Part shown: in pieces, positions 7,161 to 28,576 of the stretch
Position numbering within the stretch: position 1 is the stretch's first letter
Layout: each line of letters begins with the position of its first letter
Origin: a virus
Lineage: Duplodnaviria; Heunggongvirae; Uroviricota; Caudoviricetes
DNA length: 37,809 nt
Virus record (IMG/VR): IMGVR_UViG_2602041644_000008
Span: 1-37,809 of that record
Direction: 5' to 3' (one strand)
Notes under the pieces: model-generated
What the model was told of the DNA's origin: nothing
The model's database searches: none
What the model saw: the letters and a program-made list of their open reading frames with translations, nothing else
Made by a program: the position numbers and the translations under genes

Positions 7161-7175
7161 TTACCTTAAAGGTAA
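7161..7175. promoter_or_regulatory. Operator copy (exact)
   Basis: TTACCTTAAAGGTAA, 20 nt upstream of the start of the minus-strand Zn-ribbon gene. On the minus strand it is preceded by AGATAT (-10-like). Confidence 0.75.
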
Positions 7176-7381: not shown

Positions 7382-7535
7382 ATGTGTAAAGCGCACCTAT
7401 TCTATGGTGAGCTGTGTGGGGGCACCGAAAGGTGCGCCGGGTTCCTTTGTAGCCGGTAAGACCAACTCTGCACAGTTCACCACCATCTGATTGGTCTCAG
7501 CGGTGGTGATTAACCTAACTACAAAGGTGATCGCC

Positions 7536-10307: not shown

Positions 10308-10308
10308 C

Positions 10309-13300: not shown

Positions 13301-13698
13301 GTACCAGCAAATCCCAAGCCTGAATTGTATTCCATGTCAGCTCTCTGCTGATCGATTCGATGTTTAATTGCCATTGTTTCTTCAGGCGAACCGGAGTTGA
13401 TAAACGAATCTGCAAAATCTTCATAGCCTTTAATATCTGCTGCATCGTTATCAAATGGGTTATATCCTTCAACCCTGTCAAACTGACTGAAAGGAGCACT
13501 GGCAATAAAGCTACCCAGCGTGTTATCTATACGAAATGCTGCTTGTCTAGACCTTTGAACGCGTTGATCACTGGTAAATGGGTTCACAGCAGAAAGCAAA
13601 GAAGGTGTTTCCATATAGAAATTACTGTCATCAGGTGCTGCTATTTGCTGAATATCCTCGCCAAGCAACTCTTTAGGATCCTGTTCATATATCGGCAT
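10309..13698 (-). CDS. Large internal virion / DNA-ejection protein (T7 gp16 positional analogue)
   Basis: 1129 aa, last and largest of three consecutive overlapping-start genes after the tail hub. Long coiled-coil centre and Gly/Ala-rich hydrophobic stretches. Confidence 0.6.
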   Translation of the reverse strand: MPIYEQDPKELLGEDIQQIAAPDDSNFYMETPSLLSAVNPFTSDQRVQRSRQAAFRIDNTLGSFIASAPFSQFDRVEGYNPFDNDAADIKGYEDFADSFINSGSPEETMAIKHRIDQQRADMEYNSGLGFAGTVSSVAMRLADPFNAISMFIPFGAVVRGGRIAETAGRFALANAAGSVASEAALQATQEARSPMESVSNVVVDALVGGILGAGAQLLAGPSAREAVVNSVGNHLRGMDSPQSIGAAQVFNTTLDQEQLAGLGLANKTLSVTPAGRLAQSPSLVSRQINQQLAENNYFFAKNDEGLATFTAVETKIKQYDAMLYKQMEATRDAYQQYSKSVSARGVKRMNFIDFNEAVGMAMRRGDQSDIPEVSQAAARIRPIFETTKARMQELGILPEDIDVVTAKSYLPRIYKFDKILSDRTEFRGRIANWIQGISAKGADKAGQRIEKINSLLKTAEESALRADALASEIAEAEKWSGKKILLMEELDKRNRLISQETDTQARLTRIEKELAETSSEKLQARMMKESSDLKTRLDDIAQAKSELPVYQRHMELLDNPRKYRSELRRLQKRANSTTRLNASRERALKQMEPLSREEAEDAADEIVNKIIGAPSGLVPADIIPERLVGRAGFTKSRTLLIPDERIEDFLESDVNYIMESYLRQVAPEIELTAQFGRKDMGEQIRQVSEEYTRLIKEAKTPKRRAALEKQREADIRDITAMRDRLLGTYGAPQDPRSFFVRAGRVARNINFLRLLGGMTVSAATDLMRPMMQHGLRKSLGPMVSMLKNMDSVKIATRDLREMAVGLDYVLSTRTKAIADLTDPYSRRSAAERGLNWMTQKFGNWTLMNQWNSALKSWSGMIVQSRILDAARQVSAGGTLSKSEMRKMAQVGINEDVLRRIGEQFGKHGEDMDGLLTGHSHLWDDRFAREIFQSAVLKDVDSVIVTPGVGDTPLFFSKEGWKMITQFKTFIFAQHNRVLVSGIQQGDAAFYLGALGTIALGSMVYMMKQKLSGRDIDYSWNNLVKEGIDRGGMLGWLSEPLNTVENISGGRFGLGAMFGAPPVSRFQSRNTIGALLGPTFDLGGDAATVANGVLNGEFDSQQTHAVRKMLPFQNLWAISPLLNKVEEQMK

Positions 13699-16445
13699 TA
13701 TTTGCCCCCTGCGTATATATTGCTCGGAAGGTAATTGGCTGAACCATAACCGAATGGTTTGGTCAGATCTGGAGGAGTATATCCATCTTTATTGCTGAAC
13801 TGCGGCAGCGGATTGCCTTCTCTCCGCACTCTAGCCTCATCAACACGCTGTTGCTGGAACTGAATGGTTTGCCTGTACATTGGAGATGTCAGCTGATCCG
13901 GCTTGAAACGAACAGGGAGACCATTTTCTCCAATATAATTTCTCGGTTCTATCGCTCCGTTTGCGTCAGGCTGTAAAACCATAACAGCATAACTCCTATC
14001 CCTTGCCGTAAGGCCATCAGAAACAAGTATTAAGTCCGTATCACTGCGAGGACCGCCAAAGGATTTTGATTTAAGCTCGCGTTTTTCCTGCTCCCACTGC
14101 CCCTGTATCCAGTTACCAGCACCATTATTTACTCCGTACAATGCCTCAGGTGCATACTTCATAACCTCTGCTTTGCCATTAACCGTAGAAACTCCCCAGG
14201 TGGTTCTGATCATGGCATTGGTCATTTTCTCAGCCTGTTCTGCATCGCCACCTGTCTGTACAAAGTTAGCATCGTAAATTGTCTGGTAATCTCGCTGATA
14301 GGCCGCATTTGATTTTCCTGGATCGGTAATATCCGGAGACCACGAACCAAAGGAAGTCAGACTGCTGGCGTTATTTTGTGCAGCAGTTGCCCTCGCCGCG
14401 ACATATTTTTTGTCTCGCATGGCAGTGGAAAGCATCTGTTTCATTCGGTCATCCTGTTGGAACACCTGGCTGTAAGCCATATCAACAGCCTTATCCTCCG
14501 GCACTCCAGCGCGGGAATAATCGTAAACCTTGCCGTAAAATGCCATCGTACTTTTATCAAGTGTTGCCGCTGCCGCCGGATTATTATCGAATAACTGACC
14601 GTAGAATTTTGCCATCGGGACAACCAGCGCAGGATCTCTTGATGTTGCTCCACTGTTAAGCATTGTTTTAACCTGAGTTGGTATCATGCCGCTTTTAGTT
14701 GTGACGGTGACCAGTGTATTGATGCTCTGCGGATCAGATATGGAAAACGAAGGCGCGATATCCTGCGCGAAATAACGGTCTACCGCTGCCTGATTGTTTT
14801 TGTCGTTCGGGTCCAGCGGGAAGTTATTTTGCATTGAAGACACGAACCTGTTTCTTCCCTGCTGAATCTCCCACTCCCTATCCATCTCTTTAAATTTGGC
14901 CTGCATTTTCTCCCAGCGTTGCTGGTTAGCTGCAAATCCAGGAGCGTTTGGATCCTGTGGACGTAAACGTTCAAGAATGTCTTGTCGTCCTTCTGGAGTG
15001 AGGTCTTTAGCGGCACCAATGACACCTCCATATTGTATCTGCGCCTGCATATCCTTCCACTTCATAGCGCCAATGCGCGGACCATTGGCCCGGATAAAAT
15101 CGTCCTCAGAAGGTAACTTCTCAGGTTTCAATCCTTCATCAAGGGCTGAATATGCATCTTTAACTACGGTGCTAAGCTGGTCCGCATACTGCTGGCGGTA
15201 CTGATTTCTCAGCTCATTAGCCTGCCTCAATGCCTGTATTTGCATTTGAGGGCTCATAGCATCAAATGCCGCATTGCCCGTATAACGCTTAGGTGAATCA
15301 AGGTTAGTTAGACCAAGGGCTGCCGAGATACCAGTTTCAAGCTGTTCGGTGCTATAAGGCATACTGCCATTTTCGTGTTTAATAATCCCAGCACATAAAG
15401 CAGCTAGTGTCTTTGGGTTAGAGATATCAAGCTGATCATTCTCCCCAACACCAAGCTCACCACACAATGCCCTAATATAAGCATCAGTATTATTACCATC
15501 ACTAGCCGGAGCATAGCGATTAACAATCTCGCTAACGGTGTCATAGCCTTGACGCTGGTAAGACAACATATTTTTACCCAACGCGCGGATTCCATGCTCA
15601 GGGGTAGCAAACGTTGCAAAACGTCCATCGCTACCGATCTGACCTTCCCACGGGTTAGATTTGCTCGCTTCAATATTACCAGGGTTATTATTACGTAAAC
15701 CACGAGCATCCAATGAATTACCATGTGATATTGCACGACTCACACCATCAAGATCCCCTGGCTCTCCATTAACCTGAAGAAACTCGTTGTATTTTTGAGC
15801 GATATTTCCTATCCATGCTTGCTGCCCCATTTGTTCCTTGAGCTGAGTTTTCTGCTGAACACGCCACTCATCAGGAAGCCCATGCGCATCAGCGTATTGA
15901 TCAATAGATTCAAATCGCTGCTTGGCTAAATCGACAAATGCTTGGTTATCGCTATATAGCCCCGCAGACTGAGTGACAGCCAATGCATTTCCTGACAAAT
16001 ACGTTTGATCTTGGAATTGCTGAAACTGCCCAACTTCATATCGACGTGCCTGATTGTAATAAGACTGCATAGACTGCTGGAGTTGAAAGGATAATTTATT
16101 CCTTTCCTCACTTTCAGGAATTGAGCCTAATAATGCCTGAGCCCTTTCCTGCATATTTTTCATAACAGCGTCACTCTGACCAAGAGCGTTTTTACCCTGT
16201 TTAGAAATCAGCCCACTTTCAGGGTTGTTAATCTGGTCATCTGCAAATTGGTTAAATTGCAGTAACGCCTCCTGGGCCATAGCAACATTCGCTTTCTGCC
16301 TGGCTTCACCATATGCCACCGCATACTGATCTGCGACATTCGCCAGCACCTGACCTGCTTGAGGAACATCGAAGATCTGAAAACCACCGGTTTGCACACC
16401 ACGACTTTGCACCTGGCGTCCGGATGTAGTAGGAACAACAGGCAT
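13698..16445 (-). CDS. Internal virion / ejection protein with conserved NNPGNI domain (possible cell-wall-active domain)
   Basis: 915 aa. The segment RGLRNNNPGNIEASKSNPWEGQIG...FATFATPEHGIRALGKNMLSYQRQGY is a domain I recall from phage virion proteins. ATGA-type overlaps with both neighbours. Confidence 0.55.
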   Translation of the reverse strand: MPVVPTTSGRQVQSRGVQTGGFQIFDVPQAGQVLANVADQYAVAYGEARQKANVAMAQEALLQFNQFADDQINNPESGLISKQGKNALGQSDAVMKNMQERAQALLGSIPESEERNKLSFQLQQSMQSYYNQARRYEVGQFQQFQDQTYLSGNALAVTQSAGLYSDNQAFVDLAKQRFESIDQYADAHGLPDEWRVQQKTQLKEQMGQQAWIGNIAQKYNEFLQVNGEPGDLDGVSRAISHGNSLDARGLRNNNPGNIEASKSNPWEGQIGSDGRFATFATPEHGIRALGKNMLSYQRQGYDTVSEIVNRYAPASDGNNTDAYIRALCGELGVGENDQLDISNPKTLAALCAGIIKHENGSMPYSTEQLETGISAALGLTNLDSPKRYTGNAAFDAMSPQMQIQALRQANELRNQYRQQYADQLSTVVKDAYSALDEGLKPEKLPSEDDFIRANGPRIGAMKWKDMQAQIQYGGVIGAAKDLTPEGRQDILERLRPQDPNAPGFAANQQRWEKMQAKFKEMDREWEIQQGRNRFVSSMQNNFPLDPNDKNNQAAVDRYFAQDIAPSFSISDPQSINTLVTVTTKSGMIPTQVKTMLNSGATSRDPALVVPMAKFYGQLFDNNPAAAATLDKSTMAFYGKVYDYSRAGVPEDKAVDMAYSQVFQQDDRMKQMLSTAMRDKKYVAARATAAQNNASSLTSFGSWSPDITDPGKSNAAYQRDYQTIYDANFVQTGGDAEQAEKMTNAMIRTTWGVSTVNGKAEVMKYAPEALYGVNNGAGNWIQGQWEQEKRELKSKSFGGPRSDTDLILVSDGLTARDRSYAVMVLQPDANGAIEPRNYIGENGLPVRFKPDQLTSPMYRQTIQFQQQRVDEARVRREGNPLPQFSNKDGYTPPDLTKPFGYGSANYLPSNIYAGGK

Positions 16446-17020
16446 CAGTAACCTCCTATTTTGAATCGGGAGTCAGAATTCATAAAACCTGAGTTAGATA
16501 ACATTGGCGTCCCACCACTAGATGTACTTCCTTTAGAGAACGGACTCCACGTCCCACCAAACATCTGGTACGCACCGTATGCCTTCAGAGGCGCAGTGAG
16601 TAAAGTTGTTGCTGCTCCCACATTCCCCTGTTTACGGGCTGAACTGGCTTCTGCTTTATAGTTGGCAGCCTGAACCTGATAACCGTAAGCCTCGCGTTGC
16701 GCGTTATTCACCGTCGTCAGAGAATCAAGAGCGCCAAACTGGGCAGTGTCGCCAAATATATCCAGCGCGTTACCTGTAGATAAATCAGCGCCGGTAGCCC
16801 CCATTGTCGCCGCCTGTGTACCAAGCCGCTGTCGGGTCTCTCTGCGCCGTTGCTCAGCTTCAGCGTTACCTCTGTTTATTGCATCATTTGCCTGAGCTGT
16901 GGCTATATCTGCGTTCGCTTCTGCAACCTTCGAGGCATACTTTCCCTGTTGGTACTGGGTGTATGCCTGAATGCCACTCATGGCGAGCATTGCGCCACCA
17001 GCAATAACCGGATCGCACAT
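16445..17020 (-). CDS. Internal virion protein (T7 gp14 positional analogue)
   Basis: 191 aa, Ala/Gln/Gly-rich, translationally coupled within the ejection-protein block. Confidence 0.45.
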   Translation of the reverse strand: MCDPVIAGGAMLAMSGIQAYTQYQQGKYASKVAEANADIATAQANDAINRGNAEAEQRRRETRQRLGTQAATMGATGADLSTGNALDIFGDTAQFGALDSLTTVNNAQREAYGYQVQAANYKAEASSARKQGNVGAATTLLTAPLKAYGAYQMFGGTWSPFSKGSTSSGGTPMLSNSGFMNSDSRFKIGGY

Positions 17021-17484
17021 TATTTTCTCTCCATGTGAAATCTGTGGAAATTAAGACCAAGAGCACCATAAGGCGCGGCTTCTTCAAGCCTGAATCCAAG
17101 CCAGTGCAGCCATGCTTTGGCAACATGGTTTCGCTCGTCGACATAGTTTTCCAGGCGCGGATAAACTGCCAGCATCTGCTGCAATACAGGGCGGCAGTGG
17201 CGAAGAAATGTCTTCTGATATTTTTCGATACGGCTGGTTCCGACCAGCCAGGGCGTACCATTGCCACCGATCATTGACGCCGGAGATACGCCAAACATGG
17301 TTACCAGTTCTCCGTTCGCAAATCCTGACCAGGCCATAGTCGCAGTACGCAGACCAACACGCAGCGCATCTTCGGTAGTCATCAGTGATACCGCATACAG
17401 TTCGTCAATATCAGCCTGACGAACATCCGGCAAAATCATCTGAAGATGCTCTTCGGTTGCGGGAATAATTTGAACACCGATCAT
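17020..17484 (-). CDS. Small virion-module protein (T7 gp13 positional analogue)
   Basis: 154 aa. Start overlaps the tail-hub gene stop. The function call is from position only. Confidence 0.4.
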   Translation of the reverse strand: MIGVQIIPATEEHLQMILPDVRQADIDELYAVSLMTTEDALRVGLRTATMAWSGFANGELVTMFGVSPASMIGGNGTPWLVGTSRIEKYQKTFLRHCRPVLQQMLAVYPRLENYVDERNHVAKAWLHWLGFRLEEAAPYGALGLNFHRFHMERK

Positions 17485-19955
17485 CAGAATCCCCCAACAG
17501 TAAGGCGAGGAATAACGGCAAGAACAGACAGCGGCAACGGATCAAGCTGACGGATTTTTACACGTCCGTTTTTGCCCCAGTTACTGTCCAGTTTCACTTC
17601 TACTTTTCCGGTAGCATCATCAACAGGATCATCGTAGAACTCGAATTCACGCTGTGGATATTCGTACCATTTACCGCCGGGCGTAGTCGCCCAGATGCCG
17701 CGACTGGCATTCACAACCAGAGTAACGGAGGGGATCACCTGTTTTTTGTCCAGCAGCGTTTCCTGTCCGTTAATGTTGATATCCAGTGTTTCGAATTCAG
17801 CAGTTATTGGCAGGCCGATGTGCACTACAGCCCCCGGAGATTCCAGCGTGACGGCACCTCCGGAAACCACTTTCTGTGGTTCCACGTTCGCATCAGAGAG
17901 AATGTTTACGGTCTGGCCTTCAAGATGAGACAGGCCTCCAAATGTCCGGCGCGCCATCTGCCAGTTCGTGGTGGCCACATTCCTGAGGGATGGCGGGACG
18001 TTCCTGTTAGCACGAACCACTACAGCGGTGTTGCTGGTTACAGAAATAATGTCGCAACGTAATTCTTTTGACACTTCATCGCCAGTATCAGGATCAGTTC
18101 CGGTATAAGGGAACTGTAGTTGCGCGCCGACATCACTACTGGTGAAGTACGCACCACCAGAAACACTGATTGTATATTCCGCATGGTAATCCCATTCACC
18201 AGAACCACCAGTGATGGTCATCGTTCTGTCAGACGTATTTCTTCCATCATAGCTAAGGCCAGAATCAACAAAGAAAGCATCTTCATCGCTGGTAAATAAA
18301 CGGCTGGACAGTCGCTCGATGTATCTCACTGTTTGCCCGTTAACGGTTCGGTTAACGACGAAATACACCGCATCTTCATTGCCTTCGCTGATACTGCATG
18401 TGCTTTCATATTTTCCGGTACTGGATTGTGGTGCCCATGCAAAAACCTGCTGATCACGCAAATAGGTCATCACCAGTAATTTACCGTCATCACGAATGCA
18501 GAAGGCACTGGAGTAAGGGACAATCGAGAAGCACCAGTCAACAATGCTGTGCTTCTGAAAAAGATGATTGGCAAGGATGGTCAGGTCGTTCCCCTGATAG
18601 CCGTCAACATCGAATGAGTAGGCCAGATCACGGACAACGCTGCCTTTCTCCTGGACGAACAGAGCAATATTCGCCACGGCAATTGGCGGGACGTTGCTTG
18701 AGCCATTTGATCCCTGAGAGCTGAATGCAAATGATGATGGGGTTAACACTTTGTTCTGGTCGCCGGTGATGACGTACTCACCTCCGGAAGTCAGCGCCAC
18801 CAGAGAACCAACATCAATCAGGTGACGGATCTCATTAACCTGACGCCCGGCATAGGTGTAGATAATTCTGTCGTCATCCTGCGTAGGATTGCTTTTGCCA
18901 AAATCCTTATAATCCCCGGTACGGCTGGCCCAGATAGTCTGAGGGAACGCAGTCGATGCGGCGAAGTAAAGACGTTGTTGATAATAAACAACAGTGCCAG
19001 GATAACCATTAACACTGTTCCAGGCATATTTAGCCCATTTATAGCTGGCATTATCCTCGCCAACGACCTGCGAAGGGATATAGGAAATCACCTCGGCAGT
19101 TGCAGTAGTTCCATTTGCAGCAGTGATACGGGCAATGCCAAAACCACTGTGCAGATATTCCCACTCAATGCCGGTATCATCATCACCGGATCCGCCCCAG
19201 CCATCCCATGATGTGCCTTCTGTATGCGAAGGGCGCAAAGTGCCTGTTTTACCTGCTGTAACAGCGCGATAGTAGTTACTGTCTGCACGGCGAACATCGT
19301 CAATCGACGTACTCTTACTGGTTTCCCATACCGGCACTGAATCCACTGCAGGCTGTTCCAGATAGAACAATTTGCCTACCTGCTCCGAGCCAAAAATAGA
19401 GGCGCTTGCCGTTAACGTAATTGTCCCGGTGCTGGCGCTGGCATAAACCGTCACTGACTCGTCAATATTGATATCTTCAAATGGTCCGTTCTTCGTTACC
19501 ACATCAACCAGTTGCCAGTTGTCATGCGCATAGCGACGCAACTCTTTCGGCGGGTATGCCGGATGAACCAGCGTAAGCACGTCTGCGCTTTGCGTGAATT
19601 TAATTCGGAACAGATCGGCTTCAGTATATGGCGTGGCAATTTCATAAATAACATTGCTGCTGTTCAGCACCAACGCACCATCTTTGATAACGCGCATGTA
19701 CTGGTGTCCGAACTCCAGAGCATAGGTCTGAACCGTCGAGAACTGGAACGGGATCAGGCGGCATTTCCGATTTTGGTATTTGGCGGCACCGACAAAACGC
19801 GTACCAGGTCGATTCTCAACGCCGCCATACTGCCGCACGATAAAGTTATCGCACTTGCGCAATGCTACCTGGTACTTCGCCATGTCAATACGCCCGTACA
19901 ACGACGGTCCAATCTCACCACCGGCAAAACTGGGCTGGATCCAACTGATAGCCAT
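17484..19955 (-). CDS. Tail hub / nozzle protein (tail tubular protein B-like)
   Basis: 823 aa, beta-rich. Lies directly after the adaptor candidate and before the ejection proteins, as in T7-type podoviruses. Confidence 0.55.
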   Translation of the reverse strand: MAISWIQPSFAGGEIGPSLYGRIDMAKYQVALRKCDNFIVRQYGGVENRPGTRFVGAAKYQNRKCRLIPFQFSTVQTYALEFGHQYMRVIKDGALVLNSSNVIYEIATPYTEADLFRIKFTQSADVLTLVHPAYPPKELRRYAHDNWQLVDVVTKNGPFEDINIDESVTVYASASTGTITLTASASIFGSEQVGKLFYLEQPAVDSVPVWETSKSTSIDDVRRADSNYYRAVTAGKTGTLRPSHTEGTSWDGWGGSGDDDTGIEWEYLHSGFGIARITAANGTTATAEVISYIPSQVVGEDNASYKWAKYAWNSVNGYPGTVVYYQQRLYFAASTAFPQTIWASRTGDYKDFGKSNPTQDDDRIIYTYAGRQVNEIRHLIDVGSLVALTSGGEYVITGDQNKVLTPSSFAFSSQGSNGSSNVPPIAVANIALFVQEKGSVVRDLAYSFDVDGYQGNDLTILANHLFQKHSIVDWCFSIVPYSSAFCIRDDGKLLVMTYLRDQQVFAWAPQSSTGKYESTCSISEGNEDAVYFVVNRTVNGQTVRYIERLSSRLFTSDEDAFFVDSGLSYDGRNTSDRTMTITGGSGEWDYHAEYTISVSGGAYFTSSDVGAQLQFPYTGTDPDTGDEVSKELRCDIISVTSNTAVVVRANRNVPPSLRNVATTNWQMARRTFGGLSHLEGQTVNILSDANVEPQKVVSGGAVTLESPGAVVHIGLPITAEFETLDININGQETLLDKKQVIPSVTLVVNASRGIWATTPGGKWYEYPQREFEFYDDPVDDATGKVEVKLDSNWGKNGRVKIRQLDPLPLSVLAVIPRLTVGGF

Positions 19956-20962: not shown

Positions 20963-21400
20963 TTAACCAGTTACTTTTGAGCGGATCGGGTACGGCGTAT
21001 TGGCATCAACATCCAGACTGATACCCGCAGTGAATTTGCCAGCCGTTAGTGGGCCAGTTGCGACGGAGTAGTTAACACGCAGATATCGCTGAACACCGGC
21101 AGGCACCTTTGCAGAAACAACTCGTTTACCTGCTGTCAGGGCGGTCTTTGCCAGTGCGCCACTATCATAAATAGTGGTCCATGAGCTGTTATTCTCACTC
21201 GTCTGCAACTGGATGTTTACAGTTGCCTCACCACTTGCCGTGGCGGCTTCGTTAACCAGCACCCAAAACTCAAGCGGATAACCCACGCCGATATCACGAC
21301 GTTTTCCGTCAATTGGACCGAGATCGATTACGTCAGTAGAAGCCGCGGTATTCGTAACCGCCTGAGCTTCGGAGAACATCAACAGTTTGTCGGTGATCAT
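20963..21400 (-). CDS. Capsid decoration/cement protein candidate
   Basis: 145 aa, beta-rich, immediately after the major capsid gene. SD GGAGAAAG. Composition resembles BPP-1 Bbp16-type cement proteins (recollection). Confidence 0.45.
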   Translation of the reverse strand: MITDKLLMFSEAQAVTNTAASTDVIDLGPIDGKRRDIGVGYPLEFWVLVNEAATASGEATVNIQLQTSENNSSWTTIYDSGALAKTALTAGKRVVSAKVPAGVQRYLRVNYSVATGPLTAGKFTAGISLDVDANTPYPIRSKVTG

Positions 21401-21415
21401 CTTCTTTCTCCATTA

Positions 21416-21435
21416 GTGGGTCTGTTACGACCCAC
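21416..21435 (-). other. Stem-loop after the major capsid gene
   Basis: GTGGGTC-N6-GACCCAC immediately downstream of the capsid stop. No U-tract. Confidence 0.4.
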
Positions 21436-21451
21436 AGGTTAATAACAGGCG

Positions 21452-22438
21452 TTACACCACGCGGGCTTCTGTTTCCAGAAGCGCATCAGTTTCACGGATT
21501 GGTACACCACGGAATGAAGTCCACCACTCGCCTTCTGTCTCTTTTACGCTGATCGCCAGAGATGTTTTCTCCAGAGATTGCAGATCAAGAGCCTGGCCTA
21601 CAGTGCGGTTCATGTAGAACACCGGGCGACCCATGCCACGATTTGGAATGCGATGCAGTGCTTTAACCATCAACTTCGCAATATTTGCGGCAGAGGATGG
21701 TTCTGAAAGATTGCTGACATCGATGTTTGCAATGCGAACAACATAACGCCAGTCACGCAGAGCAAGTCCGTTATCCCATTTGTAATGGGTACGGTAGCCT
21801 TCGTACTTGCCGCCATTAGCATCTTCCAGTGTCACCTGGCCTTTATCTTCCATCTGAATGCCAGCCTTCTGCCCTTTCGGGAAGATGCCATGCACGGTGT
21901 TTTCGCCCCACACCACTAACCAGATTGAGGTGTTATCTGTACCCGTGCCACCAGCATCAATGATGTTCTGAGCATTACCTGCAGACAGGCTGGAATAGCG
22001 GGAGGACAGTCCCATAAACTGCTGAGGGTTAACGCTGGAATCACCATAAAACAGCGTCTGCGCCATCTGCTGATTCATCGCTTCAATAAATGCGCGGTCT
22101 TCAGACAGGCGGAATTCGGCGGTATTGCCGTTCAGATCAGCCAGTGACTTATCGACTTCAGCATAGGTTTCCAGCATGCCCACGGAATCGGTTACCTGCA
22201 CTGTGGTTGATTTGCTTGGCTGTACGCCATAGTTCAGCAAACGCCAGGTAGCTGAAGGTAAACCAGAACGAATGGTGGTTTTGTGTCCGGTAGGAAGGTT
22301 CCCTTCGACAAAAGGCATATCCTGAAGGATCGGGTTAGTTTGACCGAGAAGCTCGATAATCTTATCGACTTTCCCATCTGGATCGACGCGCTTACCCCAG
22401 TCAGCCAGCGTTAGCGCAGTTAAGCCTTTAACAGCCAT
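21452..22438 (-). CDS. Major capsid protein
   Basis: 328 aa, directly after the scaffold gene. Strong SD GAGAGGAAA. Size and position are typical for an HK97-fold capsid protein. Confidence 0.8.
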   Translation of the reverse strand: MAVKGLTALTLADWGKRVDPDGKVDKIIELLGQTNPILQDMPFVEGNLPTGHKTTIRSGLPSATWRLLNYGVQPSKSTTVQVTDSVGMLETYAEVDKSLADLNGNTAEFRLSEDRAFIEAMNQQMAQTLFYGDSSVNPQQFMGLSSRYSSLSAGNAQNIIDAGGTGTDNTSIWLVVWGENTVHGIFPKGQKAGIQMEDKGQVTLEDANGGKYEGYRTHYKWDNGLALRDWRYVVRIANIDVSNLSEPSSAANIAKLMVKALHRIPNRGMGRPVFYMNRTVGQALDLQSLEKTSLAISVKETEGEWWTSFRGVPIRETDALLETEARVV

Positions 22439-22452
22439 TGTTATTTCCTCTC

Positions 22453-23148
22453 TTATTTGCCATAGAGCACTTCGGCCGCACTACGCTGGCCTTCATTACC
22501 ACCGGTGACCATGCCATCTTCAGACATCGCCTTTCCGATTTTCACGAACGTTTTGACCAGATCAGGGTGATTACCCAGCCCGGTGGTGTTCAGATATTCT
22601 TTGAGTTCAGGTGTCCCGAACTGGTCAAGCGCACGCTGTGCGGCGCTAAGGTTAGAAATCAACTTGTCGCCACCGATTTCTTTGTCAGCTTTTACATCAG
22701 CAGCCCACTGCTCGGTTGTTTTCTGCCAGGCTTCTGCCTGGCGCTGCTGAACACCTGCCAGAATCTTCGGATAAGCATCAACCAGCTTTTGCGCTTGCTC
22801 GTTGGTCAGGTTAAGTTCTCGCGCCACCGGCTCGAATTCCTTCAACGCTTCTGTATCCAGCTCTACGCCTTCGGCAGCCTGAAACTCGTACTTCTCCGGC
22901 GCACCATCCGGTTTATCGCCGTCCTTTTTTTCACCCTGCTTATCGCTTTCAGGCTTTTTGTCATCAGCAGGTTTATCGCCATCAGCAACAGGTTGCGGCT
23001 TATCACCTTCTTGTTGTGATGGATCACCAACTGGAGCATGGTTATCACCTGCAGGCGCTGACGGTTCTGACGCAGCCGGAGCTGCTCCACCATCGACTGG
23101 TTGCTCATTGCAAAGACGGCGATACAGCAAACGCTCAAATAAATTCAT
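22453..23148 (-). CDS. Scaffolding protein
   Basis: The track start is GTG 23154; ATG 23148 has SD AGGAG 5 nt upstream. Acidic/Lys-rich, low-complexity N-terminal half (DKPQPVADGDKPADDKKPESDKQGEKKDGDKPDG) and a helical C-terminal half. Lies between portal and capsid. Confidence 0.75.
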   Translation of the reverse strand: MNLFERLLYRRLCNEQPVDGGAAPAASEPSAPAGDNHAPVGDPSQQEGDKPQPVADGDKPADDKKPESDKQGEKKDGDKPDGAPEKYEFQAAEGVELDTEALKEFEPVARELNLTNEQAQKLVDAYPKILAGVQQRQAEAWQKTTEQWAADVKADKEIGGDKLISNLSAAQRALDQFGTPELKEYLNTTGLGNHPDLVKTFVKIGKAMSEDGMVTGGNEGQRSAAEVLYGK

Positions 23149-23150
23149 GA

Positions 23151-23447
23151 TCACTCCTGTTCACTGGCCTCTTTGGCCATCTTCAAATACTGTTCAGGGC
23201 AATGCGCCATAACGCGCTGAAACAGTTCCAGCGCCAGATTGCGTTGCCCCTCATTAAATGCCATTGCCATAGCGTCCATCGGTGAGATAGCGGAAAACAC
23301 ACGGCCTTTCTCCAGCACCGACCAGACAACGCGACGCCCCTGTTCACTGCTCATGACAAAGCGAATGTCATCAATTTCACGCTGCGCCATGTCACGTTGC
23401 TTACGGGCGTTTTCTTCTTTCAGTTGATCGTCTTCGTAATCTGTCAT
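23151..23447 (-). CDS. Small conserved head-module protein, function unknown
   Basis: 98 aa. Overlaps the portal stop (ATGA type) and ends at the scaffold SD. Confidence 0.6.
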   Translation of the reverse strand: MTDYEDDQLKEENARKQRDMAQREIDDIRFVMSSEQGRRVVWSVLEKGRVFSAISPMDAMAMAFNEGQRNLALELFQRVMAHCPEQYLKMAKEASEQE

Positions 23448-25123
23448 TGTGATTGCCCACCCTGACCACTAACTGCATTCGCCATAGCTGACAAAACACT
23501 CGGATCCGAAGTTTTAGCTTCGCTTAGCGTCTTGGCACCCTGTGCCGCCGCCATCCCCATCGCCATCATTTGTTGCTGCTGTTGCTGCTGTGCCCGTTGC
23601 TGGCGAGCCTGCTCAACCTGTTCCTGCGGAACAATGACGGTTGGAGACACTCCGGACATATCAGCGAATGCATCGATCGCCTGATCAACGTTGAGTTTGT
23701 CGAGAGCTTCTGGTTTCGCTTGCGCAAGTTGACCAATGAAGTTGACCGTAGACGCCAGACTGGACAGGCCGATAGACTTCTGCGCCTGAGCCATGACGGA
23801 AATGTATTCGACCTTCAGGGGCATACCTTCCATCGCGTCAGGCGGTGGCGGCAGCATGTTTTTACGCACCATCATCGAGAAAGAGCGGTCAATGAGAGGA
23901 TTAAGACATTCGTCGTTCAGACGCTCCAGAACCGGCCCCAACATCAGAAGTTTTTCTTCTTTCATTTCGATCACCGCTTCAACAGGCATCGAGCGGGTAT
24001 TGATGTTCTGCAACATCATGAACAGATCGACAAAGTAGGCGCTGTTAATGATTTGACGAGTGTCCTGAATGTCTGCTACCAAATCTGCTGTACTGGGGTT
24101 AACCAGATAAGCAGGCCTGAAGCCATCCTGACCAGTAATCTGATCGATATACGTGATGTCGCCAGGAAGAAGGGAGGCGCGCTGATTCTTGAGGGAAATC
24201 GGAGCAACCATCGGCGGATTGGTGGCTTTATCAATCAACTGCGACTTGCGCTTCTGGAGAAGCTGCAATGCCTTAACAGGTCCAAGCGCCAGCATACCCG
24301 GGCATGATGATCCATAAACATCTTCGCCGTTAACTTCCCAGCGCGGAGCCATAATTGGAAACTCATCGAATCCGGACTCACGCAACAACTTGTCGTTATC
24401 GCCACCAACCTCGTAATAAACCGATTTGAATGGCTTGTTCTTGCTATCCAGCTTCGATGTATCGCGGTCAATGTTCGGGTAAACCGAATGCATCACTTCA
24501 ATCCACTTCTCGTAGGTGCCGCTTTCCCACATGCTTTTTACGGATTCGCTGACGTTATTTAGCCCGAACTCCTGAACAAGCTGACGAACAGTCATAGAGA
24601 ACTTGCGAAAACAGGTGTCCACACTGCCACGAGGTGAGTTAGCCAGGTAGTAACTGCCTATCGGGAATGGCATTGTGCGAATGATGTCCTCGTCATCCTC
24701 CAGCACTGCCATTGCACCAGTGCTGTATGTGCCGAGGCTTCCGTATAACTGCGGCAGCGACTGATAGAGATTCGACTTATTGAACATATCGTTCATGCGG
24801 TTCTGCACCGCCTCAAGCCACAACTTAACAGGGCCATAATCCATCATTTCAGGATCTGGCGTAGCCAGGCGAAACCACGGACGCGCGGGGCTTGTGATGC
24901 CTGACATCATGCCGCTGGCGAGAGTGCGCGCCGCCATAGTCCCGGTCGAATCAATAATGCGTGTATTGCGTCGATCGTTACGGTTGACCTCAGAAGTCAG
25001 AAAGCGGGAACCACGCGGGTTGATGTAATCACTCAACTCGCGCCAGTGCGGCTCGAACGACTGACGCTCGCTTTCAAGTTGTGCGAACTGTTTGTTCAAT
25101 CGCTCTTTAGTTGTTTCCGCCAT
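23444..25123 (-). CDS. Portal protein (T7-type head-to-tail connector)
   Basis: 559 aa. The N-terminus ...RLNKQFAQLESERQSFEPHWRELSDYINPRGSRF... is typical of podovirus-type connectors. Gln-rich C-terminal tail. SD GGAG. Confidence 0.85.
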   Translation of the reverse strand: MAETTKERLNKQFAQLESERQSFEPHWRELSDYINPRGSRFLTSEVNRNDRRNTRIIDSTGTMAARTLASGMMSGITSPARPWFRLATPDPEMMDYGPVKLWLEAVQNRMNDMFNKSNLYQSLPQLYGSLGTYSTGAMAVLEDDEDIIRTMPFPIGSYYLANSPRGSVDTCFRKFSMTVRQLVQEFGLNNVSESVKSMWESGTYEKWIEVMHSVYPNIDRDTSKLDSKNKPFKSVYYEVGGDNDKLLRESGFDEFPIMAPRWEVNGEDVYGSSCPGMLALGPVKALQLLQKRKSQLIDKATNPPMVAPISLKNQRASLLPGDITYIDQITGQDGFRPAYLVNPSTADLVADIQDTRQIINSAYFVDLFMMLQNINTRSMPVEAVIEMKEEKLLMLGPVLERLNDECLNPLIDRSFSMMVRKNMLPPPPDAMEGMPLKVEYISVMAQAQKSIGLSSLASTVNFIGQLAQAKPEALDKLNVDQAIDAFADMSGVSPTVIVPQEQVEQARQQRAQQQQQQQMMAMGMAAAQGAKTLSEAKTSDPSVLSAMANAVSGQGGQSQ

Positions 25124-25344: not shown

Positions 25345-25434
25345 ATCAATGACTCCGTACGCAATTAAATTATTACCAATTTAACCACATATGATTTATT
25401 TATCGTAGATAATTGACATTTAACGCACGAGTTA

Positions 25435-25449
25435 TTACCTTTCAGGTAA
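25435..25449. promoter_or_regulatory. Operator copy (exact)
   Basis: TTACCTTTCAGGTAA, identical to the copy at 6041. A TTGACA hexamer lies at 25413-25418 on the plus strand, 16 nt upstream. Confidence 0.75.
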
Positions 25450-25771
25450 GCAAAGAGTTCATTCCGGTTATTAACCTGACTGGCTTGTCGTTAAATTGAA
25501 CAGGTGGAGTGAGCTTTTATTTTGAGCAGTACGGCGTATGGCACATGCGCCGATAGCGGTCTGGATACGTTTAAGGGGTACCCTCCCTTGCTCGGGCAAA
25601 CGAACCAGGTAGCCGGAATGTGCAAGTCGAGCGGTTTTATTCCGCGCACGGGGATTCACCATCCCGGCGATTCGGTGTGACGCCTCGGAAGAGACGAGGG
25701 TACAACGATGAGAGCATTTATGGAGCCGCGACAAAGTGTGGCGCCTTAACAGGCTAAGTGCTCTCAGCGTT
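25450..25771 (+). ncRNA. Unassigned structured noncoding segment, probably co-transcribed with the downstream tRNA
   Basis: Stops occur in all three plus-strand frames. Long-range pairing GTACCCTC (25578-85) with GAGGGTAC (25696-703). Local hairpins TTGC-UCGG-GCAA (25588-99), CGGAAT/ATTCCG (25614-19 / 25639-44), GGGAT-TCACC-ATCCC (25651-65), GGCG/CGCC (25666-69 / 25681-84) and AGAGCA/TGCTCT (25711-16 / 25759-64). I could not assign it to a known family. Confidence 0.45.
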
Positions 25772-25848
25772 GTGGCATTAGCTCAGTTGGACAGAGCAAC
25801 CGCCTTCTAAGCGGTTGGTTGCAGGTTCGAATCCTGCATGCCACGCCA
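25772..25848 (+). tRNA. tRNA-Arg (anticodon UCU, reads AGA)
   Basis: Hand-folded 77-nt cloverleaf: acceptor GTGGCAT/ATGCCAC, D arm GCTC-AGTTGGACA-GAGC, anticodon arm ACCGC-CTTCTAA-GCGGT, variable loop TGGTT, T arm GCAGG-TTCGAAT-CCTGC, discriminator G, encoded CCA. Confidence 0.9.
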
Positions 25849-25891
25849 GAATCACGCCTAAGGACCGTGATGCCAGAAGTTCCAGGTGCTT

Positions 25892-25933
25892 GGCGGTGAC
25901 AGTTTCCCTTGAAGGACTATCACCGCCCTTTTT
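25892..25933 (+). terminator. Rho-independent terminator about 45 nt after the tRNA
   Basis: GGCGGTGA...TCACCGCC stem (8 bp) followed by CTTTTT. An additional ATCACG/CGTGAT hairpin lies at 25851-25871. Confidence 0.7.
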
Positions 25934-26011
25934 ACAGCAGGACGCCATTGCGATGACTTCATGCTGTAAACCCGTACAGCCACGGAAGGCATAACTCATT
26001 GCTTCCAGTTC

Positions 26012-26035
26012 GCCCGGTTCGCCGGGCATTTTTTT
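26012..26035 (+). terminator. Strong rho-independent terminator just upstream of the Gp49-like gene
   Basis: GCCCGG-TTCG-CCGGGC followed by A and T7. Ends 11 nt before ATG 26047. Confidence 0.8.
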
Positions 26036-26046
26036 AAGGTGAGATT

Positions 26047-26403
26047 ATGAACGACCAGCAAATCGAAAAAGAAATCGTTGAGAAAGGCAAAACCGCTCCG
26101 CGAGTTACGCCTCAATATATCGAAAGCATCATTCTTGAAGAGCATTTCTTTACTGCTTATGACGGCATTCGTGCTGCCAATATGGGCGTTGGCGATACGT
26201 GGACAGCGCATAAATCTACAGACCTCCTTACTTTCTGCGTACTGGTGCTGAAGAATGGCTTCACCGTCACCGGAGAGAGCGCATGTGCAAGCCCGGAAAA
26301 CTTTGATGCAGAAATTGGTCGGAAGATTGCCAGGCAGAATGCTGTAAACAAAATCTGGATGCTTGAAGGTTACTTGCTGAAGCAGAAGTTAAGCGAGCAA
26401 TAA
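26047..26403 (+). CDS. Gp49-like phage protein (N4 gp49 / Sf6 gp66 family), function unknown
   Basis: 118 aa, SD AAGGTGAG. The block NGFTVTGESACASPENFDAEIGRKIARQNAVNKIWMLEGYLLKQ matches my recollection of that family. Confidence 0.7.
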   Translation: MNDQQIEKEIVEKGKTAPRVTPQYIESIILEEHFFTAYDGIRAANMGVGDTWTAHKSTDLLTFCVLVLKNGFTVTGESACASPENFDAEIGRKIARQNAVNKIWMLEGYLLKQKLSEQ

Positions 26404-26407
26404 CACC

Positions 26408-26419
26408 GTGACATGTCAC
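26408..26419. repeat. 12-bp perfect palindrome GTGACATGTCAC, copy 1
   Basis: Lies between the Gp49-like stop and its terminator. The 14-mer CGTGACATGTCACA is identical to the copy at 28672-28685. Confidence 0.7.
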
Positions 26420-26423
26420 AAAC

Positions 26424-26452
26424 AGCCAGCCTATGAGCTGGCTTTGTTTTAT
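26424..26452 (+). terminator. Terminator after the Gp49-like gene
   Basis: AGCCAGC-N6-GCTGGCT followed by TTGTTTTAT. Confidence 0.7.
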
Positions 26453-26493: not shown

Positions 26494-27969
26494 TTAAGCA
26501 TAGGGATCGTAATCTGTAATGGCCTTGCCTTGCTGGTTCTGCTGACCTGGAATTCGCAGACGCTTCGACACAGGGAAAGCAAACGTCAGCAATAGCGCAT
26601 CGCCTTTACCCGGCGAACGCCCAAGCCGCTCCTTGATATCTTCCTTCGGTTCGATAACGATTTTACCGTCCACTCGAACTTTGTACTCTGCCGCCGACAG
26701 GTCGTCCGCTGTTTCCTGGTCATCAAGCATCCCGCCCAGCCTCAGCCATGTCTTGCATGAGTTGAACATCTCCCCACGCTTGTTGAGCATCTGCGGGTCA
26801 GTAGACGCGCCACCGAACGGAACAAGTTGCCATGTGCGCCCCCAACCGTCACCGATTGACTTCAGACCGGTACCGTAACCAAAGTCGATGAACACTGCGT
26901 CAGCCTGATACAGGTCTTCAAAGTCAGCGATACGCTTCGCCATAATCAGATCGTCGGTAGTCTTGTTGCCAGTCCACAGCACCTTACTGTGTAGCCCCTG
27001 CCGCAGGTATATCACCGCGTCATCAACGCCTGAATATGCCGGGTCAACACCGATTATCACCGGAGCATGCGCCACCTGCGCAGCGGTTACCACCCGTTTC
27101 ATTGCCTCATCAGTAAGACCGGTAGGGATAAACTGCAATTCAGATGCATCAGGGAATATGCCGCGCACACGGATTTTAACGAAGTCGCTGTCTTCCCCGT
27201 AGTCATCAACCCATTTCTGCAACTGCTGTTTGTTAGTGCCTTCCACCGTCCGGCTGTCAATCTGCGCAGTTTTCCAGCGGTGTTTATATTTGCGGAAACA
27301 TTCGCGGAAACGCCCGGTGTTACGTGTAGGGTTTCCGAACGCCACCCAGATAATCTCAGTGTCTTCGTCCGTAAGCGCACCCTCAGCAACTTCCCACACC
27401 AGATCCGCAATGTTCGACGCTTCATCGAATACCACGATGATGCGTTTGCGCTCGTTGTGTAGTCCGGCGAATGCCTCAGTGTTGTGCTCAGACCAGGGTA
27501 TTGCGTCAGCCCGCCACCGCTTGTCGTGCCCAGGGTCATTGCTGTACATCGCGGTAGCGGTACAGGTAAACCAGTCTTTCGTGATAGCAAGGTTAGACCA
27601 CTTGATAATTTCCGGCCAGGTCTTCGTTCGTAGCTGGTTGTCGGTGTTAGCGGTCACCACAACCTTACAATCCTCGCAAGTGGACATGCCCCAGTTGATC
27701 AGCATTGAGATGAATGCGGATTTACCAATACCGTGACCAGAAGCGCGTGCCAGCATAAGCGGCTGATAGCGCGTCTCTGGATTCTGCAGGTGATCACGTA
27801 TCTCTCGGAACGCATCAGCCTGCCACTGACGTGGGCCGGTGGCATGTGCCAGTTCAGTCCCCTCTTCCCCCCACGGGAACGCATAGAGAGCATAGCCAAG
27901 CGGATCGTGAGTGAACCCTGCAATATCCTCGATCAACTGCTCTTCAGGAGATAACGCTGTATCTGTCAC
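26494..27969 (-). CDS. Terminase large subunit
   Basis: 491 aa. ATPase-like N-terminal half (ARASGHGIGKSAF Walker-A-like; IIVVFDEAS Walker-B-like). ATGA overlap with the small-subunit gene. Confidence 0.85.
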   Translation of the reverse strand: MTDTALSPEEQLIEDIAGFTHDPLGYALYAFPWGEEGTELAHATGPRQWQADAFREIRDHLQNPETRYQPLMLARASGHGIGKSAFISMLINWGMSTCEDCKVVVTANTDNQLRTKTWPEIIKWSNLAITKDWFTCTATAMYSNDPGHDKRWRADAIPWSEHNTEAFAGLHNERKRIIVVFDEASNIADLVWEVAEGALTDEDTEIIWVAFGNPTRNTGRFRECFRKYKHRWKTAQIDSRTVEGTNKQQLQKWVDDYGEDSDFVKIRVRGIFPDASELQFIPTGLTDEAMKRVVTAAQVAHAPVIIGVDPAYSGVDDAVIYLRQGLHSKVLWTGNKTTDDLIMAKRIADFEDLYQADAVFIDFGYGTGLKSIGDGWGRTWQLVPFGGASTDPQMLNKRGEMFNSCKTWLRLGGMLDDQETADDLSAAEYKVRVDGKIVIEPKEDIKERLGRSPGKGDALLLTFAFPVSKRLRIPGQQNQQGKAITDYDPYA

Positions 27970-28562
27970 TGATTACCATCCTGACGTTCTTTGAGTCGCT
28001 TCCTGGCTGCCGCTATGCGATCAGCAATTGTCACATTCACATTAACATCCAGGCGTTCTTTGAACGCGTTGACATCAACATGCTTACCAATCAGCTCAAG
28101 GTTCTTCACCTTGTCAGGCCATTTAATTTTTTTGAGGATTGTCTCTATCGAATCCTCGTTCATGTTCATGATGGTCGATGACAGATCAAAGCCACTAAGC
28201 GTAGTGCGCCAGATTTTCGGCCACTCACGGATTGGTTTAAGGCTCCCATCGTCGTTGAGGATGTCGATCACGTCCATCTGGTCGATCTCCACCAGGCGCA
28301 TGAGAACGTAATCAGCACTGACGCGCATTCGTTTGTTGCGCTCCTCCATCAACTCGGCAATCCGTTTTTGAATGCGTTCATCGCGCATCATGACACTGGC
28401 TTTAACTGCCGCTGTATTTGGGGAGAATCCTGCGTTAATCGCTGCCTGAGTTTGGTTTTCAGGCGTTTTGATGTATGACTGGCAATAAGCCTCCTGCATT
28501 GTTGTTAGTGGCTTAAATTGCGTTGATTTGCGTTTATAGGTTTTAGGTTCAGCAGGCATCAT
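27966..28562 (-). CDS. Terminase small subunit
   Basis: The track ORF extends to 28640, but that extension contains a terminator hairpin and two operator copies. ATG 28562/28559 (MMPAEPKTYKRK...) follows SD GGTGG. The HTH-like segment QEAYCQSYIKTPENQTQAAINAGFS is typical of Terminase_2-type small subunits. Confidence 0.75.
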   Translation of the reverse strand: MMPAEPKTYKRKSTQFKPLTTMQEAYCQSYIKTPENQTQAAINAGFSPNTAAVKASVMMRDERIQKRIAELMEERNKRMRVSADYVLMRLVEIDQMDVIDILNDDGSLKPIREWPKIWRTTLSGFDLSSTIMNMNEDSIETILKKIKWPDKVKNLELIGKHVDVNAFKERLDVNVNVTIADRIAAARKRLKERQDGNQ

Positions 28563-28576
28563 AACCACCGTGGTAA
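28562..28576. promoter_or_regulatory. Operator-like copy (1 mismatch) over the terS SD/start codon
   Basis: TAACCACCGTGGTAA, 18 bp centre-to-centre from the exact copy at 28580. Confidence 0.5.

Follow-up and report, generated by a model that had tools for sequence, protein, structure and literature searches.

A stretch of 37,809 nt deposited as IMG/VR virus record IMGVR_UViG_2602041644_000008 (in full, the window of this study) matches Uetakevirus, the epsilon15/phiV10 group of phages. Between a small gp3-like open reading frame (ORF) and the putative gene for the terminase large subunit (terL), it contains a unit rich in RNA features that reads on the plus strand, and these two neighbours as well as the portal gene lie on the minus strand, as the initial annotation had noted. 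What does such a unit produce, and how might its products serve the phage? The initial annotation had listed a promoter-like hexamer, an exact operator, noncoding sequence, a tRNA-Arg, terminated segments and a Gp49-like gene. We recovered every one of these at the same positions, as a coherent plus-strand cassette with a repeated operator and a layout that is kept in relatives. The best reading of the sequence is that of an operator-controlled accessory operon inserted between the head-morphogenesis and terminase genes of a Uetakevirus. Its tRNA, its terminators, its Acb4-family gene and its moron-like architecture are of known kinds; the structured RNA ahead of the tRNA is new. This RNA is a new family, without a described relative, unusually abundant and present in classic model phages. 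The large RNA family, the Acb4-family identity of the Gp49-like gene and a swap site for counter-defence genes had all been missed initially.

Structure and strand of the RNA

The sequence upstream of the tRNA had been described as about 320 nt of structured noncoding RNA. It is present and noncoding, but it is not uniform: an 81-nt lineage-specific leader, which forms a hairpin in the minimum-free-energy fold, is followed by a conserved RNA of 242 nt (Table 1). The structure of the 5' domain of this RNA was derived from alignments A2 and A3, and covariation was scored on 61 distinct sequences. In the 5' domain, 97.0% of cells formed standard pairs, compared with 25-47% in slid controls, in which the 3' partners were shifted by 1-3 columns. 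Double changes were present in 12 of the 32 pairs (137 cells), a level reached by none of 500 shuffles, and an alignment made with MAFFT only gave the same picture. For the long arm P6, 92.8% of cells were paired as opposed to at most 63.5% in the slid controls, with compensatory changes in half of its 18 pairs (9/18). The second pseudoknot, PK2, is backed by a switch from C-G to A-U in six sequences. For PK1, both strands are invariant and one of them lies inside the 19-mer that was used for sequence collection, so that covariation is uninformative there. The covariance model R1 matches positions 25525-25713 with 152 bits (E about 1e-45). The tip of P6 differs widely in length among phages, and the final two bases of this helix are bases 1 and 2 of the tRNA-Arg. 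Long invariant single-stranded stretches are common to unrelated phages.

The structured RNA has a near-invariant U-G pair and frequent G-U pairs, which would be A-C mismatches if read on the opposite strand; the plus strand is therefore the functional one. Together, the alignments indicate that the RNA is folded and plus-strand. A minus-strand coding gene in relatives had been named as an observation that would speak against a plus-strand RNA unit; we found no conserved minus-strand gene, and the lengths of the 61 copies modulo 3 are distributed as 28/18/15. A protein-coding reading was ruled out by this distribution, by the frequency of compensatory changes and by the strand-specific G-U pairs. 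A stop-free frame on the minus strand is present in 39 of the 61 copies, as expected for a short G+C-rich stretch. The ORFs that have been drawn over the structured RNA or the adjoining tRNA vary from record to record. Several 'hypothetical proteins' in public records overlap one or the other on either strand, namely PhiV10p04 (L001, 3434-3685), mEp460_037 (L004, 2443-2811), mEp390_036 (L132, 3011-3253) and those of Ayreon (L131, 3061-3180) and Tyrion (L007, 2211-2372), and these are probably spurious gene calls.

None of the 4227 models of Rfam 15 matched 25450-25771 at the gathering threshold or at E <= 10, and for homologs at seven loci, including those of P1, mEp460, SPN1S and Tyrion, there was no match to the structured RNA at E <= 0.5. 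We found no description of it in the literature, sequence-string searching included. The Pas small RNAs (sRNAs) and svsR were considered as published descriptions and rejected, as they are different loci. Two further complementarities were seen within the unit: the leader segment CATTCCGGTTA (25460-25470) is complementary to the invariant TAGCCGGAATG (25610-25620), and the invariant CCCGGCGATTCGG (25663-25675) is partly complementary to the stem of terminator T2 (26014-26026). Since neither pairing is kept in other phage types, both are probably due to chance.

Distribution and genomic contexts

Copies of the structured RNA with about 80% identity occur in three unrelated phage types, and a sensitive DNA search returned counterparts of 25531-25775 that are 79-83% identical in phages unrelated to Uetakevirus. 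The carriers comprise lambdoid phages (mEp460, cdtI, Ayreon, 2H10, Stx2c and some Stx2a phages), P1, P7, D6 and SJ46, Klebsiella and Enterobacter phages, and one phage deposited as a Stenotrophomonas phage. An invariant 19-mer, GGTAGCCGGAATGTGCAAG, was present in at least 120 IMG/VR contigs, which gave 111 distinct cores. It was also present in 24 GTDB species representatives, all but two of them Enterobacterales (13 genera, e.g. Kosakonia, Citrobacter, Klebsiella and Erwinia). The remaining two are metagenome-assembled genomes labelled Oscillospiraceae/Bacillota (L143 and L155, the RNA of the latter scoring 179.5 bits), and their matches are probably misbinned or contaminating enterobacterial phage DNA. 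By BLAST, the element is found in 1,840 of 5,426 complete E. coli genomes, about a third. Among the matches listed, the annotation under it was 'none', the adjoining tRNA-Arg or, once, a hypothetical protein.

The contexts of the RNA differ between the phage types. In Uetakevirus it comes after a promoter with an operator, in the interval that separates the gp3/portal block from the terminase genes. In SPN1S the RNA comes with the tRNA-Arg, in Tyrion and a Klebsiella phage it comes without a tRNA, and in epsilon15 it is reduced to its first third (L005, 2453-2584; 42.6 bits) and there is no tRNA. Over this truncated stretch, the depositors of epsilon15 annotated an RNase III site that reads on the other strand. 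In lambdoid carriers, which represent more than 20 immunity types, the order is cro and cII (on the opposite strand), a cI-like repressor with HTH_3 and Peptidase_S24 domains, the cI terminator, operators with the leftward promoter PL, the RNA, terminators, and the early-left genes. The latter begin with a ParB-like gene, with DUF2303/yfdQ or directly with xis-int, and none of the checked neighbouring ORFs was an N-like gene or had a corresponding Pfam match. In the P1 group, the RNA lies without P6 inside the C1-controlled ban operon, directly after a tRNA-Ile and 85 nt before ban.

Among 60 IMG/VR loci, a tRNA-Arg lies directly downstream of the RNA in about 14 and a tRNA-Ile (P1 annotation, anticodon CAT) directly upstream in 7, and about 37 loci have no tRNA nearby; tRNA adjacency is thus common, not obligatory. 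The two parts of the RNA are also found apart. The 5' domain occurs with P6 in Uetakevirus and lambdoid phages and without it in P1, and phage LLS has no 5' domain and keeps a P6-like helix, an RprA-like RNA and a long hairpin. From these combinations we conclude that the 5' domain and the P6/downstream part are separable modules. The LLS arrangement also rules out the notion that all N-less lambdoid phages use the structured RNA.

No second intact copy was found in the window or in the loci spanning cro, cII and O of lambdoid carriers. One locus (L026) has two copies of the 5' domain on its minus strand (4793-4964 and 3986-4159), about 800 nt apart and with an opposite-strand gene between them. 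The second of these is mutated at otherwise invariant positions, has a 5' flank typical of another immunity type, and looks like a decayed recombination remnant.

In lambdoid copies, a conserved GTTGTGG junction leads into a cloverleaf-like fold. In mEp460 (L004, 2741-2870), this fold follows P6, pairs GUGGUG with CACCAC and has D-like and T-like arms, its 5' strand beginning at the conserved GTGG. As a tRNA it was rejected: ARAGORN and the Rfam tRNA model were both negative, and the fold energy was no better than that of shuffles. A copy of this sequence with 96% identity lies near plp in RCS47 and JL22 (P1-like), at about the place of the tRNA-Asn/tRNA-Thr of P1.

Operators, terminators and the cargo gene

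The putative promoter of the unit combines TTGACA with TACCTT 17 nt further downstream, and the latter overlaps the operator. This promoter is absent from the output of the promoter scan because its -10 hexamer is weak. The operator itself is better defined: TTACCT-N3-AGGTAA occurs at 12 sites in the window (6 exact and 6 with one mismatch), compared with 0.02 expected by chance, and by this count the palindrome appears to be a genuine repeated operator. Several of the 12 sites adjoin -35/-10-like hexamers and one lies upstream of the portal block. They cluster around immunity RNAs at 7305-7487 and near other promoter-like sequences. The operators of the P1 repressor C1 are likewise dispersed repeats around the genome, and the 12 predicted sites imply a repressor control resembling that of C1. 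The immunity RNAs are an isrK-like RNA (74.7 bits) and a C4 antisense RNA (78.2 bits), which lie side by side on the plus strand just downstream of the palindromes at 7161 and 7254. In a Uetakevirus, this pair amounts to an immI module for antirepressor control of the P1 type, and it is also present in the lambdoid phage mEp460 (L004, 206-394).

The operator of the unit is located in a divergent intergenic region, which might also drive the portal block. In the corresponding region of epsilon15, between gp3 and the truncated RNA copy, there is a 'repressor' protein_bind annotation, and its depositors placed repressor and integration host factor sites there on the gp3/portal strand. This fits a separate promoter for the portal block, which the initial annotation had offered as an alternative to antisense effects.

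The tRNA-Arg(UCU) that had been proposed was upheld by ARAGORN and by Rfam, and the same gene is present in phiV10, SPN1S and many IMG/VR contigs. The proposal that it supplements AGA decoding is plausible in part. In 39 long ORFs of the window, AGA and AGG occur at 7.9 and 5.8 per 1000 codons and jointly make up 23% of the arginine codons. These frequencies are several-fold above the values of E. coli K-12. It is not plausible for the head genes specifically: in the head region (20963-25123 and 26494-28568, i.e. the portal gene, the putative terminase gene and neighbours), AGA is absent and AGG nearly so, with three codons in total. Both codons are concentrated in long ORFs at 3.6-20 kb (3621-5936 and 9456-19955) and in several shorter ORFs elsewhere, a contrast that suggests different codon regimes or module origins.

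Downstream of the tRNA, the hairpins that had been noted are all present. The three predicted terminators T1, T2 and T3 each have a G+C-rich hairpin followed by a T run, and T3, which the scan places on the plus strand and the phiV10 annotation on the minus strand, is possibly bidirectional. T1, with the form GGCGGT...ACCGC(C/T)CTTTTTACA, is common to Uetakevirus and lambdoid modules, the changes in its stem appearing compensatory by eye, and it is followed in those modules by the long hairpin and a second terminator. A count of terminator enrichment was uninformative, as the upstream control also contains cI terminators. The segment between T1 and T2 is conserved in Uetakevirus-type cassettes. 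The RyhB model (RF00057) gave it 18.1 bits (E 2.1), below the gathering threshold of 55, with an alignment limited to the exact core run ATTGCTTCCAGT and the terminator; CATTGCTTCCAGT may be a chance match to, or a seed mimic of, the RyhB core, and is a lead rather than membership. Below the gathering threshold of 70 for RprA (RF00034) were also the tails of BUCT708 (50.2 bits; L008, 2131-2250) and LLS (40.8 bits; L159, 31893-32029, minus strand). In the window, the Rfam search gave no match to RprA. Both tails lie in the PL leader and contain AUUGCUGUGUGUAGUCUU, the exact RprA model consensus, plus a terminator, and by this likeness they may be phage mimics of the host sRNA. The BUCT708 hairpin directly after P6 aligns to stem-loop 2 of RprA. 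The hairpin at 25849-25874 resembles it by eye and was not drawn in the minimum-free-energy fold of 25849-26042.

The plus-strand ORF after T2 (hereafter the cargo gene), initially called Gp49-like, matched PF13876 with 118.7 bits against a cut-off of 27, which upholds that designation. PF13876 is the Acb4 family, which counters the cyclic oligonucleotide-based antiphage signalling system (CBASS). Chang and co-authors reported that SPO1 Acb4 and all eight homologs tested bind 3'3'-cGAMP, and that SPO1 Acb4 is active early in infection (PMC11722364). The profile of the cargo protein matched PDB 9e4w_A (E 3.3e-5) and aligned with the conserved core of SPO1 Acb4. In a Foldseek search of the PDB with its AlphaFold2 (AF2) model (mean pLDDT 80.7), the top 13 matches were all 9e4w (Acb4) chains, with probability 1.00 and TM 0.41-0.55. 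The two proteins are about 23% identical, and the cargo protein differs from SPO1 Acb4 in an extra N-terminal helix and a variable insert. By profile and predicted fold, the cargo gene can be assigned to the PF13876/Acb4 family of anti-CBASS sponges.

The ribosome-binding site (RBS) of the cargo gene starts one base after the T run of T2, which leaves no room for a promoter, and transcription of the gene should therefore depend on read-through. The position after T2 is occupied in sister cassettes by a different allele of Acb4, by a Tad2-like gene (PF11195, E 3e-24 and 2e-12; loci L093, L104 and L082), by an HNH endonuclease gene (L158) or by an unidentified gene (L124, L033, L074, L007, L080 and L058). 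These differing occupants point to an exchange site for counter-defence genes, at which the unidentified genes are candidate new anti-defence genes. Six sister cassettes have a separate promoter (ATGACC, 17 nt, TATAAT) after T2, overlapped by an operator of its own; it follows that the RNA part can form a transcription unit that is complete in itself.

The interval from the gp3-like gene to the putative terL measures 1,149 bp. Its identity is 98% with a fragment of phage Phi05_1387 and about 91% with phiV10 and O157 typing phages 9 and 10, records that have its layout in common. The cassette is kept in phiV10, O157 typing phage 9, SPN1S, Tyrion and Klebsiella relatives.

Table 1. Positions of predicted features of the unit, its neighbours and the operator-like sites, numbered from the first nucleotide of the window.
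Feature	Position	Strand	Basis or remark
TTACCT-N3-AGGTAA sites	6041, 7161, 7254, 8301, 25435, 33178, 33240, 35186, 35523, 35571, 36283, 36345		
Portal gene	23444-25123	minus	PF12236, E 2e-186
Small gp3-like ORF	starts 25344	minus	
-35-like hexamer TTGACA of putative promoter	25413-25418	plus	read from sequence
Operator-like palindrome TTACCTTTCAGGTAA	25435-25449		identical to site at 6041
Lineage-specific 5' leader, 81 nt	25450-25531	plus	kept only in E. coli Uetakevirus relatives
Structured RNA, 242 nt	25532-25773	plus	double-pseudoknotted 5' domain and long arm P6
5' domain of structured RNA	25532-25701	plus	covariance model R1, covariation
P1 helix	25532-36/25548-52	plus	
PK1	25541-46:25618-23	plus	P1 loop GCACAT with ATGTGC
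P2 helix	25560-63/25606-09	plus	encloses variable hairpin
P4 helix	25651-55/25661-65	plus	
PK2	25657-60:25674-77	plus	P4 loop CACC with GGTG
P5 helix	25683-87/25695-99	plus	conserved loop GAAGAGA
P6 closing helix, tip variable	25702-20 with 25755-73 (25702-25773)	plus	inverted repeat I1
tRNA-Arg(UCU), CCA encoded	25772-25848	plus	ARAGORN (anticodon TCT); Rfam RF00005, 73.2 bits (gathering threshold 29)
Hairpin GAATCACG...CGTGAT	25849-25874	plus	likeness by eye to BUCT708 hairpin
Terminator T1, GGCGGTGACAGT...ACTATCACCGCC then CTTTTT	25892-25933	plus	hairpin and T run
sRNA-like segment, T1 to T2	25931-26011	plus	inverted repeat I2, fold z-score -3.0
Long hairpin, ACAGCA/TGCTGT stem	25931-25970	plus	inverted repeat I2; then second hairpin
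CATTGCTTCCAGT, just before T2	25997-26009	plus	mostly matches conserved core of RyhB model
Terminator T2, GCCCGG-TTCG-CCGGGC and T run	26012-26035	plus	terminator scan; conserved
Cargo RBS AAGGTGAG and ORF	26036-26403	plus	
Cargo ORF, 118 aa, Acb4 family (Gp49-like)	26047-26403	plus	PF13876 (Phage_gp49_66), E 1.6e-34
Terminator T3, between cargo gene and putative terL	26424-26450 (hairpin 26424-26443)	plus (scan); minus (phiV10 annotation)	
Putative terL ORF	ends 26494	minus	phiV10 homolog annotated terminase large subunit

Possible roles of the unit and known systems

The reading that we favour, and to which we give about an even chance, is that of an immediate-early, operator-controlled operon for RNAs and counter-defence in which the RNAs are the main products. 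Once the prophage repressor leaves the operator that overlaps the -10 hexamer, host RNA polymerase would start near 25445 and first transcribe the leader, the structured RNA, the tRNA-Arg and the sRNA-like segment between the two terminators. A cut by RNase P at the 5' end of the tRNA would free the structured RNA with a defined 3' end, and the RNAs would probably be processed, stable products. Early in lytic growth, the structured RNA would work in trans, where it would most likely bind and tie up either a conserved protein of the host or a small molecule; the tRNA-Arg would help to decode the AGA-rich genes of the phage. Transcripts that pass both T1 and T2 would express the Acb4-family sponge and so block CBASS signalling. 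We regard the RNAs as products because the structured RNA behaves as a mobile gene, because the 5' end of the flanking tRNA, or the tRNA-like junction, and T1 would give it defined ends, and because the RNA unit can stand alone. A more specific proposal, which we consider a long shot, is that the 5' domain is itself an RNA counter-defence factor: made in large amounts at the immediate-early stage, it would serve as a decoy or aptamer and sequester a component of host immunity. That component might be, for example, a nuclease, a nucleotide second messenger or a defence sensor, and the domain would do as RNA what the Acb4 and Tad2 sponges borne by the same cassette do as proteins.

Several points weigh against the RNA-product operon. 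Its promoter activity, transcript ends and RNase P processing are read from sequence, and 'binds a host factor' is a generic role. The cargo gene would depend on read-through of two terminators, which an antiterminator acting in cis would explain better. The truncation of its copy leaves epsilon15 viable, which means that, under laboratory conditions at least, the phage can do without the RNA. In P1, the domain lies directly before ban with neither a terminator nor a tRNA on its 3' side, which is more like an mRNA leader.

The main rival is a put-like processive antiterminator or anti-Rho leader acting in cis, although we still think it unlikely. According to this explanation, the RNA would fold while nascent, stay on RNA polymerase and carry it across the long untranslated RNA region, T1 and T2 into the cargo gene, its targets elsewhere being the early-left genes in lambdoid phages and ban in P1. 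In every context, the RNA lies in sense orientation ahead of genes that read in its own direction, and in Uetakevirus and lambdoid phages it starts about 60-110 nt past repressor-controlled promoters. Across the lambdoid immunity types it stands just after cI and ahead of the early-left genes, in phages for which we found no N-like gene among the checked ORFs, and intrinsic terminators follow it, as they do ahead of the promoterless cargo gene. The lambdoid carriers thus have a promoter-proximal RNA ahead of terminators, as in put. Invariant unpaired nucleotides and two pseudoknots would fit the specific binding of a macromolecule. In addition, LLS has been reported to be N-less, and Casjens and co-authors proposed put-type RNA antitermination for it (PMC12315714). 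The same phage counts against the proposal, as it has no 5' domain and yet has the same kind of terminator-rich leader. The put region of HK022 is unlike the RNA by both hidden Markov model and covariance model: nhmmer with put gave chance matches only (E > 0.6), and model R1 found nothing at 20-34 kb of HK022. The RNA measures 170-240 nt, against about 70 nt for put. Whereas put and nut serve both early operons, with one copy for each of the promoters PL and PR, we found a single match per locus: each phage has just one intact copy, and its rightward operon has none. Further arguments against antitermination are the separate promoter after T2 in sister cassettes, the retention of T2 and the cargo gene in epsilon15 next to a truncated RNA, and the lack of a terminator between the domain and ban in P1. 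A lambda-type nut site was considered separately and rejected: the boxA-like TGCTCTC is the 3' strand of P6, where it covaries with its partner and is replaced by unrelated sequences in other members, and no N-like gene was found nearby.

Lower in rank, and improbable in our view, is a scaffold without a function of its own, which would direct maturation of the tRNA or sRNA by RNase P or RNase E, or shield downstream RNA; in P1 it would protect ban mRNA from 5'-end-dependent decay. The RNA does abut a tRNA in the window and in SPN1S, follows one in P1, and precedes tRNA-like or RprA-like RNAs elsewhere, and in P1 it would form the 5' end of ban mRNA once the tRNA-Ile has been processed. However, tRNAs do not need a double-pseudoknotted leader of 240 nt, some 37 of the 60 IMG/VR loci have no tRNA nearby, and the long invariant single-stranded stretches across unrelated phages exceed what a stabilising hairpin requires.

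The mechanism put forward in the initial annotation, in which convergent or antisense transcription interferes with minus-strand late transcription from terminase to portal and tunes the head genes, is very unlikely. The unit does lie between two minus-strand late blocks, its hairpins and tRNA would face antisense read-through, and the RNase III site annotated in epsilon15 is on the minus strand across the truncated copy. However, the RNA family also occurs where there are no opposing late genes (lambdoid early-left regions and the ban operon of P1), and covariation and G-U pairs indicate selection on the plus-strand fold. In addition, a possibly bidirectional terminator, annotated on the minus strand in phiV10, separates the putative terL from the unit, and the operator-bearing divergent region upstream of gp3 suggests a separate promoter for the portal block. 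An obligatory antisense passage of late transcription through the unit is an interpretation and not an observation, and an antisense effect on the head genes is not required. Least credible of all is a riboswitch-like sensor, in which the 5' domain, as an aptamer, would bind a metabolite or a nucleotide signal and so adjust the amount of transcription that enters the downstream genes: pseudoknots, invariant junction nucleotides and a 5' leader position ahead of terminators are aptamer-like, but the terminators are more than 100 nt away, beyond the tRNA and without overlap with the conserved domain, the P6 tip is variable, no conserved alternative pairing was seen, the 3' contexts of the domain are quite different, and no Rfam riboswitch matched.

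Whichever way it acts, this RNA represents a large blind spot among very well-studied phages: it occurs in P1, Shiga-toxin phages, the epsilon15 group and about a third of complete E. coli genomes, annotation pipelines do not report it, and Rfam has no model for it. Covariance model R1 could annotate thousands of prophages. In many lambdoid phages this RNA occupies the place of lambda's nutL and N, under direct repressor control. If it acts in cis, it would be a second, unrelated class of RNA antiterminator, with a bearing on early-left expression without N. If, as in the reading that we favour, it acts in trans, it would be a candidate effector, made of RNA, for taking over the host or evading its immunity, with proven sponge families beside it. 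The cassette also marks a swap site at which new anti-defence genes can be sought.

Among known systems, putL and putR of HK022 are similar to the RNA in being structured, in lying just after a repressor-controlled early promoter and before terminators, and in occurring in lambdoid phages without a recognised N. The RNA differs from put in being three times larger and pseudoknotted, in having one copy rather than one per early operon, and in occurring also in non-lambdoid phages beside tRNAs. T4 species 1 and 2 (rnaC and rnaD), GOLLD and ROOL are likewise phage-encoded, structured and clustered with tRNA genes, and these RNAs are matured together with phage tRNAs. The RNA has no Rfam match to them, has a different size and fold, and, unlike them, has so far been found only in Enterobacterales phages and under direct repressor control. 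The CI RNA of P4 and the C4 RNA of P1 and P7 are cut by RNase P from repressor-linked operon leaders in temperate enterobacterial phages, and a tRNA-like junction would similarly define an end of the structured RNA. The latter is much larger than these RNAs and pseudoknotted, no complementary target boxes were identified for it, and in the window the C4 model has its match elsewhere, at 7305-7487. Finally, anti-defence clusters and moron cassettes likewise place a fixed platform of promoter, leader and RBS before interchangeable accessory genes; in the unit described here, that platform consists mostly of RNA genes, with two intrinsic terminators ahead of the cargo.

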